From the NCBI RefSeq assembly GCF_988243305.1, contig NZ_OZ547136.1: a stretch of DNA of 64,000 bases. One strand, written 5' to 3'. A program made the position numbers. This document shows, piece by piece, positions 6,901 to 9,900 of the stretch (its first letter is position 1; each line of letters opens with the position of its first letter).

Positions 6901-9900
6901 AAGTCATGGCTGTGGTGCGTGAGCACAATTACCACCCGAACGCCGTGGCAGCTGGGCTTCGTGCTGGACGCACACGTTCTATTGGTCTTGTGATCCCCGA
7001 TCTGGAGAACACCAGCTATACCCGCATCGCTAACTATCTTGAACGCCAGGCGCGGCAAAGGGGTTATCAACTGCTGATTGCCTGCTCGGAAGATCAGCCC
7101 GACAACGAAATGCGTTGTATCGAGCATCTTTTGCAGCGTCAGGTTGATGCCATTATTGTTTCGACGTCGTTGCCACCTGAGCATCCTTTTTATCAACGCT
7201 GGGCTAACGACCCGTTCCCGATTGTCGCGCTGGACCGCGCCCTCGATCGTGAACATTTCACCAGCGTGGTTGGTGCCGATCAGGATGATGCCGAAATGCT
7301 GGCGGAAGAGTTACGTAAGTTTCCCGCCGAGACGGTACTTTATCTTGGCGCGCTGCCGGAGCTTTCTGTCAGCTTCCTGCGTGAACAAGGTTTCCGTACT
7401 GCCTGGAAAGATGATCCGCGCGAAGTGCATTTCCTTTATGCCAACAGCTATGAGCGGGAGGCGGCTGCCCAGTTATTCGAAAAATGGCTGGAAACGCATC
7501 CGATGCCGCAGGCACTGTTCACAACGTCGTTTGCGTTGTTGCAAGGGGTGATGGATGTCACGCTACGTCGTGACGGCAAACTGCCTTCTGACCTGGCAAT
7601 TGCCACCTTTGGCGATAACGAACTGCTCGACTTCTTACAGTGCCCGGTGCTGGCAGTGGCTCAACGTCACCGCGATGTCGCAGAGCGTGTGCTGGAGATT
7701 GTCCTGGCAAGCCTGGACGAACCGCGTAAGCCAAAACCTGGTTTAACGCGCATTAAACGTAATCTCTATCGCCGCGGCGTGCTCAGCCGTAGCTAAGCCG
7801 CGAACAAAAATACGCGCCAGGTGAATTTCTCTCTGGCGCGTTGAGTACGGGAATGGACATCAATATCCTTAAAGTAAATAAGACTATTCCTGGCTATTAT
7901 TGATAAATGCTTTTAAACCTGCCCGTTAATTACCTCACCAGCTGAAATTCACAATAATTAAGTGATATCGATAGCGCGTTTTTGCATTATTTTGTTACAT
8001 GCAGAGATGAATTGCCGATTTAACAAACACTTTTCTTTGCTTTTGCGCAAACCCGCTGGCATCAAGCGCCACACAGACGCAACAGGGACTGTTAACCGGG
8101 GAAGATATGTCCTAAAATGCCGCTCGCGTCGCAAACTGACACTTTATATTTGCTGTGGAAAATAGTGAGTCATTTTAAAACGGTGATGACGATGAGGGAT
8201 TTTTTCTTACAGCTATTCATAACGTTAATTTGCTTCGCACGTTGGACGTAAAATAAACAACGCTGATATTAGCCGTAAACATCGGGTTTTTTACCTCGGT
8301 ATGCCTTGTGACTGGCTTGACAAGCTTTTCCTCCGCTCCGTAAACTCCTTTCAGTGGGAAATTGTGGGGCAAAGTGGGAATAAGGGGTGAGGCTGGCATG
8401 TTCCGGGGAGCAACGTTAGTCAATCTCGACAGCAAAGGGCGCTTATCAGTGCCTACCCGTTATCGGGAGCAGCTGCTTGAGAACGCTGCCGGTCAAATGG
8501 TTTGCACCATTGACATTCATCACCCGTGCCTGCTGCTTTACCCCCTGCCTGAATGGGAAATTATCGAGCAAAAATTATCGCGTCTGTCGAGCATGAACCC
8601 GGTTGAGCGCCGTGTGCAGCGCCTACTGTTAGGTCATGCCAGCGAATGTCAGATGGATGGCGCAGGTCGATTGTTAATCGCGCCAGTACTGCGGCAACAT
8701 GCCGGGCTGACAAAAGAAGTGATGCTGGTTGGACAGTTCAACAAGTTTGAGCTGTGGGATGAAACAACCTGGCATCAACAGGTCAAGGAAGATATCGACG
8801 CAGAGCAGTTGGCTACCGGAGACTTATCGGAGCGACTGCAGGACTTGTCTCTATAAAATGATGGAAAACTATAAACATACTACGGTGCTGCTGGATGAAG
8901 CCGTTAATGGCCTCAATATCCGTCCTGATGGCATCTACATTGATGGGACTTTTGGTCGCGGTGGTCACTCACGTCTGATCCTCTCGCAGCTTGGCGAAGA
9001 GGGGCGTTTGCTGGCGATCGATCGCGACCCGCAGGCTATCTCCGTTGCGAAGACTATTGATGATCCGCGCTTCTCCATCATCCACGGACCTTTCTCCGCG
9101 CTGGGCGAATATGTTGCCGAGCGCGATCTTATCGGCAAGATCGACGGCATTCTCCTCGATCTTGGCGTCTCTTCACCGCAACTTGATGATGCTGAACGCG
9201 GCTTTTCCTTTATGCGCGATGGTCCGCTGGACATGCGTATGGACCCAACCCGTGGGCAGTCAGCCGCTGAATGGCTACAAACCGCAGAAGAAGCCGATAT
9301 CGCCTGGGTATTGAAAACCTATGGTGAAGAGCGTTTTGCCAAACGCATTGCCCGCGCCATTGTCGAGCGTAACCGCGAACAGCCGATGACCCGCACCAAA
9401 GAACTGGCGGAAGTCGTGGCTGCTGCAACGCCGGTGAAAGATAAGTTTAAACATCCCGCGACCCGGACCTTCCAGGCGGTGCGCATTTGGGTAAACAGTG
9501 AACTGGAGGAGATAGAGCAGGCGCTAAAAAGCTCGCTCAACGTGCTGGCCCCGGGTGGGCGGCTTTCGATCATCAGCTTCCACTCGCTGGAAGACCGTAT
9601 TGTGAAACGTTTTATGCGTGAAAACAGCCGCGGTCCGCAAGTTCCGGCAGGGTTACCGATGACTGAAGAGCAGCTCAAAAAACTGGGTGGCCGTCAGCTG
9701 CGAGCACTAGGCAAGTTAATGCCGGGCGAAGAAGAGGTGGCTGAGAATCCTCGTGCCCGTAGTTCAGTTCTGCGTATTGCAGAGAGGACGAACGCATGAT
9801 CAGCAGAGTGACAGAAGCTCTAAGCAAAGTTAAAGGATCGATGGGAAGCCACGAGCGCCATGCATTGCCTGGTGTTATCGGTGACGATCTTTTGCGATTT

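Follow-up and report, generated by a model that had tools for sequence, protein, structure and literature searches.

What is the role of the three GTGGG pentamers that stand, one after another, immediately before the start of mraZ in this E. coli chromosome? In the window, as we call the whole 64-kb stretch of DNA analysed here, the genes follow the order leu leader-ilvIH-cra-mraZ-rsmH-ftsL-ftsI, and RefSeq annotates ilvH, cra, mraZ, rsmH, ftsL, and ftsI in this way; its annotation consists here of coding sequences only, both in K-12 and in the identical strain Ecol_316. Several complete E. coli chromosomes match the 1.1 kb surrounding the pentamers at 100% identity, and 5423 of 5426 genomes contain this stretch. 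Between positions 8200 and 8420, the sole difference from K-12 falls at 8335, in the promoter spacer. The elements on which the argument turns are given below, from upstream to downstream.

8317-8322, + strand: -35 hexamer of Pmra, TTGACA (consensus scan; 77 of 79 species have an equivalent hexamer before box 1).
8341-8346, + strand: -10 hexamer of Pmra, TAAACT (consensus scan; 7 nt separate its end from box 1).
8353, + strand: probable transcription start site (A), opening a 45-nt leader (K-12 start of Kim et al. 2012, mapped by coordinates).
8354-8378, + strand: whole operator of three boxes with a 10-bp period (unique in the window; kept within and between species).
8354-8358, + strand: MraZ box 1, GTGGG, with its GTGG core at 8354-8357, at +2 to +6 (sequence read, pattern scan, species profile).
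8364-8368, + strand: MraZ box 2, GTGGG, core at 8364-8367 (sequence read, pattern scan, species profile).
8374-8378, + strand: MraZ box 3, GTGGG, core at 8374-8377, with a conserved AAA just before it (same basis as boxes 1 and 2).
8383-8392, + strand: probable Shine-Dalgarno region, AGGGGTGAGG, placed by its position relative to the ATG.
8398-8856, + strand: mraZ coding sequence, 152 aa, encoding the repressor that binds the boxes, the binding being taken from the literature (Pfam PF02381 in two stretches, E 4e-47; RefSeq).
8858-9799, + strand: rsmH (mraW), second gene of the repressed operon (Pfam PF01795, E 1e-123; RefSeq).

Read on the + strand, the window runs ...CCGTAAACTCCTTTCA GTGGG AAATT GTGGG GCAAA GTGGG AATAAGGGGTGAGGCTGGC ATG, with TTTCA preceding box 1 and the ATG of mraZ, at 8398, 19 nt past box 3. 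This reading bears out a preliminary description of the locus, which had placed GTGGG starts at 8354, 8364, and 8374 in exact 10-bp phase, on one face of the helix and upstream of mraZ: the 10-bp spacing sets the cores on nearly one face of B-DNA, each box drifting ~17 degrees from the last, given a turn of 10.5 bp, and the gene downstream is identified as mraZ by its Pfam match and its RefSeq annotation.

With up to one mismatch allowed, GTGGG-N5-GTGGG-N5-GTGGG has a single occurrence in the window, both strands considered, and none in 100 dinucleotide-preserving shuffles of it. Lone GTGGG is not enriched (97 copies in the window versus ~114 expected), and from its frequency we estimate a chance expectation of ~6e-5 arrays per window. 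When any pentamer is admitted, this array is still the only one in the window repeated three times at period 10, where Markov simulations give 0.08 per window. A fourth in-phase box is absent in E. coli, 8344-8348 reading ACTCC and 8384-8388 reading GGGGT, and the fourth in-phase position displays no conservation across the 79 gammaproteobacterial species described below.

The array lies directly behind a near-consensus promoter, whose -35/-10 pair matches the sigma-70 consensus at 10 of 12 positions with an 18-nt spacer. Kim et al. 2012 mapped a K-12 transcription start to 89589 (+), which leaves 45 nt to mraZ at 89634, and the upstream sequence listed for it ends in ...CTCCTTTCA (PMC3415461, supplementary file 2), and the mraZ leader of K. 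pneumoniae is also 45 nt long in their table (PMC3415461). After coordinate conversion (window = K-12 minus 81236), the K-12 start at 89589 probably corresponds to A8353 in this strain, a transfer supported by a promoter region identical to that of K-12 bar one base. Because this start is the base directly before box 1, the boxes would span +2 to +26, within the region of the initiating polymerase, and would be transcribed into the leader. At the one base that differs, position 8335 in the Pmra spacer, the window has C and K-12 has A; since other Enterobacterales also have C, the A of K-12 looks derived.

Several further features of this neighbourhood deserve a record of their own. An internal start within mraZ, at window position 8465 (K-12 89701; 23 reads), is assigned to rsmH by Kim et al. 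2012 (PMC3415461) and would allow expression of the downstream genes independently of MraZ. The cra-mraZ intergenic region (7797-8316) is unusually long, at ~600 bp, and Pmra together with the operator explains only the last 80 bp; a second, weaker promoter-like site lies in the same region at 8136-8163 (+). Just upstream of cra, the RefSeq annotation of Ecol_316 holds a small coding sequence at ~6624-6710 (+) named 'fruR/shl operon leader peptide', which is missing from the RefSeq annotation of K-12. Farther downstream, the Rfam family PssrA ('plasmid-encoded Shigella sRNA A') has a match of 105 bits at 23988-24077 (+). It runs from the 3' end of ftsA (22746-24008) across the spacer into the start of ftsZ (24069-25220); such a chromosomal placement conflicts with the family name. 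Further Rfam matches above the gathering score are Leu_leader at 2338-2487 (-), STnc40 at 29724-29793 (+), naRNA4 at 30197-30272 (+), and tp2 at 44064-44177 (-).

Within E. coli, 5391 of 5426 complete genomes carry the 32-mer of 8351-8382 at 99% identity or better, each at a single place, against a background in which identity over the surrounding 1.1 kb reaches only 95-99% in 4708 genomes. About 29 E. coli genomes are without a 28-nt exact match to this 32-mer. In strain WS3294A (NZ_CP035819.1), a 5-bp deletion of CAGTG, equivalent to window positions 8352-8356, takes out the Pmra start base and most of box 1 and leaves two boxes; the resulting junction is found in only 1 of the 5426 complete genomes and could be either a real operator mutant or an assembly error.

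To follow the array beyond the species, loci were searched for with an alignment of 11 MraZ sequences from distant representatives, a 43-sequence alignment being too divergent for the search. Eighty loci were fetched, one per species, ranging from Escherichia albertii to Pseudomonas, Shewanella, Pasteurellaceae, and Methylococcaceae; the 79 sequences analysed comprise 78 of these and the E. coli locus of the window itself. A perfect GTGG-N6-GTGG-N6-GTGG lies on the coding strand at most 200 nt upstream of mraZ in 74 of these 79 species, all of them Gammaproteobacteria and many closely related, so that the samples are not independent. The remaining five species match 11 of the 12 core bases, and the pattern has no further match in the control sequence drawn from these loci (518,746 nt, both strands).

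The profile of these sequences, anchored on box 1, tells which bases are held constant. Each of the 12 core positions carries 1.9-2.0 bits, whereas the spacers are A/T-rich yet variable, apart from the AAA before box 3 (profile positions 18-20), which is present in 57-60 of the 79 species. The fifth base of the unit behaves differently from the core: it is G in 60 species at box 1, in 46 at box 2, and in 14 at box 3, and in all three boxes together in just four. Since this fifth G varies, the conserved unit is GTGG followed by an A/T-rich 6-nt spacer, and the pentamer GTGGG is mostly an E. coli detail.

Placement is conserved along with sequence. A sigma-70-type promoter stands directly upstream of box 1 in 77 of the 79 species, and in 66 of these 77 promoters the gap between the -10 hexamer and box 1 measures 6-8 nt; the distance from box 1 to the start codon, by contrast, ranges from 30 to 111 nt. 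The operator is thus anchored to the promoter and its transcription start, not to the start codon, as the gap to the -10 hexamer is kept and the gap to the ATG is not. For the annotation of new gammaproteobacterial genomes, these data furnish a simple rule: three units of GTGG plus an A/T-rich 6-nt spacer, with the first unit 6-8 nt past the -10 hexamer (at +2 in E. coli), irrespective of leader length.

The protein that would read this array is likewise preserved. MraZ of the window is identical to that of K-12 at 151 of 152 residues, Y41H being the only protein difference; codon 41, at window positions 8518-8520, encodes His here and Tyr in K-12. Residues K13, R15, D87, and R91 are present, and both DxxxR motifs (D11-R15 and D87-R91) are intact; across the 43-sequence MraZ alignment, D11, R15, and R91 never vary, and K13 and D87 almost never. 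Searches of the PDB with the window's MraZ return the solved MraZ structures of M. genitalium (9qlr, 9qlg, 9sx6) and M. pneumoniae, the M. genitalium protein being only distantly similar to that of E. coli (phmmer E about 1e-11).

The resemblance to the known MraZ operator arrangement, which the preliminary description had proposed, withstands a direct comparison: the 32-mer is identical to K-12, and the published boxes fit the core and the spacing found here. Eraso et al., in 2014, reportedly found three direct repeats between Pmra and mraZ that were bound by purified MraZ, and an R15A mutant that was inactive. The repeats are said to have been written there as TGGGN with 5-nt spacers, which would be the same array with its register shifted by one base.

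MraZ boxes usually consist of three GTG(G/T) cores with six-nucleotide spacing at the dcw promoter, E. coli included (PMC12957436; PMC7761207; bioRxiv 2022.02.09.479790), and in E. coli the site is placed past the -10 box (PMC7761207; PMC8475190). Later papers (PMC7761207; PMC8475190) credit Eraso et al. with showing, by EMSA for the binding, that the MraZ of E. coli attaches to a repeated sequence and acts as a repressor of Pmra; an R15A MraZ mutant that loses activity is mentioned in bioRxiv 2022.02.09.479790. In the M. genitalium complex, a 2026 cryo-EM structure, one subunit occupies each box and inserts a 'cradle-like' motif into the major groove (PMC12957436); base contacts are made by Lys13, Arg15, and Arg86, binding is cooperative, and the transcription start falls in box 1 (PMC12957436).

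Against this background, the array of the window has the hallmarks of such an operator: at least three direct GTG(G/T) repeats with six-nucleotide gaps and a 10-bp period, located after the -10 box and at the transcription start, with the cognate mraZ, encoding both DxxxR motifs, directly downstream. We therefore consider it very likely that the array serves the mra (dcw) promoter of E. coli as its MraZ operator, together with a mechanism of repression that acts at the transcription start. MraZ binding and repression in this strain would follow from the literature on K-12, whose boxes are identical.

In the mechanism that we propose, sigma-70 RNA polymerase would start at A8353 from TTGACA/TAAACT, and the GTGG cores at +2, +12, and +22, one helical turn apart, would turn consecutive major grooves to approximately the same side of the DNA. 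Neighbouring subunits of the MraZ oligomer would each put a 'cradle' motif (K13, R15, R91) into one box, in a cooperative manner; this subunit-per-box geometry is extrapolated from the four-box Mycoplasma structure, with its distantly similar protein, and may hold here by analogy. As for the polymerase step that is blocked, we infer it from position: the boxes at +2 to +26 overlap the polymerase footprint, and bound MraZ should therefore block open-complex formation or promoter escape. MraZ occupancy would, in this way, lower the transcription of mraZ itself and of the downstream dcw genes, a case of negative autoregulation.

How much this circuit matters to the cell is a separate question. 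The preliminary description had held that the main regulatory input of the dcw cluster appears intact, and the second half of that statement stands, the sequence being identical to K-12 and the critical MraZ residues kept. The word 'main' is too strong, because E. coli that had lost MraZ showed no apparent phenotype (PMC8475190). Among the upstream promoters Pmra is the main one; the physiological weight of the MraZ input to it is modest.

The runs of G in the array suggest other functions, which draw on the structure of the nucleic acid itself. A canonical G-quadruplex motif, defined as four runs of three or more Gs with loops of 1-7 nt, spans positions 8356-8387 (+) in the form G3-N7-G4-N6-G3-N5-G4; its fourth tract is the GGGG at 8384-8387, inside the Shine-Dalgarno region. 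The fifth Gs of the three boxes and this GGGG could thus make up a three-tetrad motif peculiar to E. coli and, if it folded in vivo, a species-specific second layer of control; we regard this as unlikely. If true, a quadruplex on the DNA would compete with MraZ, one in the RNA would mask the Shine-Dalgarno region, and the dcw promoter would become a target for G4 ligands such as NMM.

A broader claim, that the G-runs chiefly act as a G-quadruplex in the non-template DNA or the leader RNA to control mraZ, and not through protein recognition of GTGG, strikes us as very improbable. The site does fit the canonical G3 motif, with its last tract in the Shine-Dalgarno region; in vitro work has characterised a G-quadruplex in the mraZ promoter of S. 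aureus, and 'conserved G4 forming motifs' were said to extend to Gram-positive and Gram-negative species alike, E. coli among them (PMC11796246). However, the canonical G3 motif occurs at this site in only 1 of the 79 species, E. coli itself; box 3 is already GTGGT in E. albertii and Citrobacter, and such motifs are not rare, with three canonical ones in the window against ~0.7 expected. What is kept is G-T-G-G, the T included, at a strict 10-bp period, which is the signature of protein recognition. As a conserved function the quadruplex is ruled out, the G-tracts not being conserved. The two other canonical motifs of the window lie at 17247-17269 and 30076-30104 (+).

Since the boxes are transcribed (+2 to +26), they might instead work as RNA in the 45-nt leader, either as a translational operator or as a site for an RNA-binding protein such as CsrA, which recognises GGA motifs; two GGA triplets lie in the leader, at 8357-8359 and 8377-8379, and the leader closes with the ribosome-binding site. 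An element acting on translation sits poorly, however, with a box 1-to-start-codon distance that runs from 30 to 111 nt while the distance to the -10 hexamer is fixed. Nor is GGA conserved, box 3 reading GTGGT in most species; the fold of the leader RNA does not surpass those of its shuffles (z = -0.12), and Rfam gives no family match at the operator and leader site. We give this RNA-level role a very small probability. That the repeat is a functionless product of chance is scarcely credible: triple pentamer repeats at other periods do exist in the window (three at period 12, for example), but the array, with 0 of 100 shuffles matching and ~6e-5 expected per window, stays unchanged in 5391 of the 5426 complete E. 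coli genomes and is kept in 74 of 79 species at the same promoter-relative place with 0 matches in 0.52 Mb of control sequence, and the conservation data effectively refute the notion.

The MraZ operator can be set beside the mraZ promoters described in other bacteria, among them PmraZ of S. aureus. Its likeness to the E. coli promoter consists in the G-tracts, and E. coli fits the canonical G3 rule (PMC11796246); the S. aureus-type quadruplex motif is, however, not conserved among the gammaproteobacteria (1 of 79), and in E. coli the structure is a putative one.

The Mollicutes site, (AAAGTGK-N3)x3-4, shares with E. coli the 10-bp period, the GTG(G/T) core, and the AAA before the core, which in E. 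coli precedes box 3 (PMC12957436). Both have the transcription start at or inside box 1 and a MraZ with K13, R15, and the arginine of the second motif (PMC12957436). They differ in the number of boxes, four in M. genitalium versus three in E. coli, and the MraZ of M. gallisepticum has been reported as an activator.

In B. subtilis (White et al. 2022), three direct repeats with a GTGG core and a 10-bp period lie in the mra promoter, and the mra operon is repressed, as in E. coli. Unlike in E. coli, GTGG[A/T]G is given as the unit, with spacers of 4 nt, and the bacterium belongs to another phylum; among the genes repressed there, ftsL is the key one, and MraZ is not counteracted by MraW. The PmraBc promoter of Burkholderia cenocepacia resembles that of E. 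coli in that its repeats lie downstream of the -10 box, overlap the transcription start, and are bound by MraZ in EMSA (PMC7761207), but there are four of them, each of 7 nt with a 3-nt spacer (PMC7761207).

The closest counterpart is the operator of K-12 Pmra (mraZ1p), from which nothing of substance differs: between the -35 hexamer and the ATG, the two sequences part at one spacer base only (C8335 in the window, A in K-12), the gene order is the same, and MraZ agrees at 151 of 152 residues, with H41 in the window and Y41 in K-12. The element is, in other words, already known, and carries little weight as a discovery, although its analysis adds a compact comparative description for the Gammaproteobacteria; the strain possesses the standard Pmra, operator, and MraZ, unaltered.
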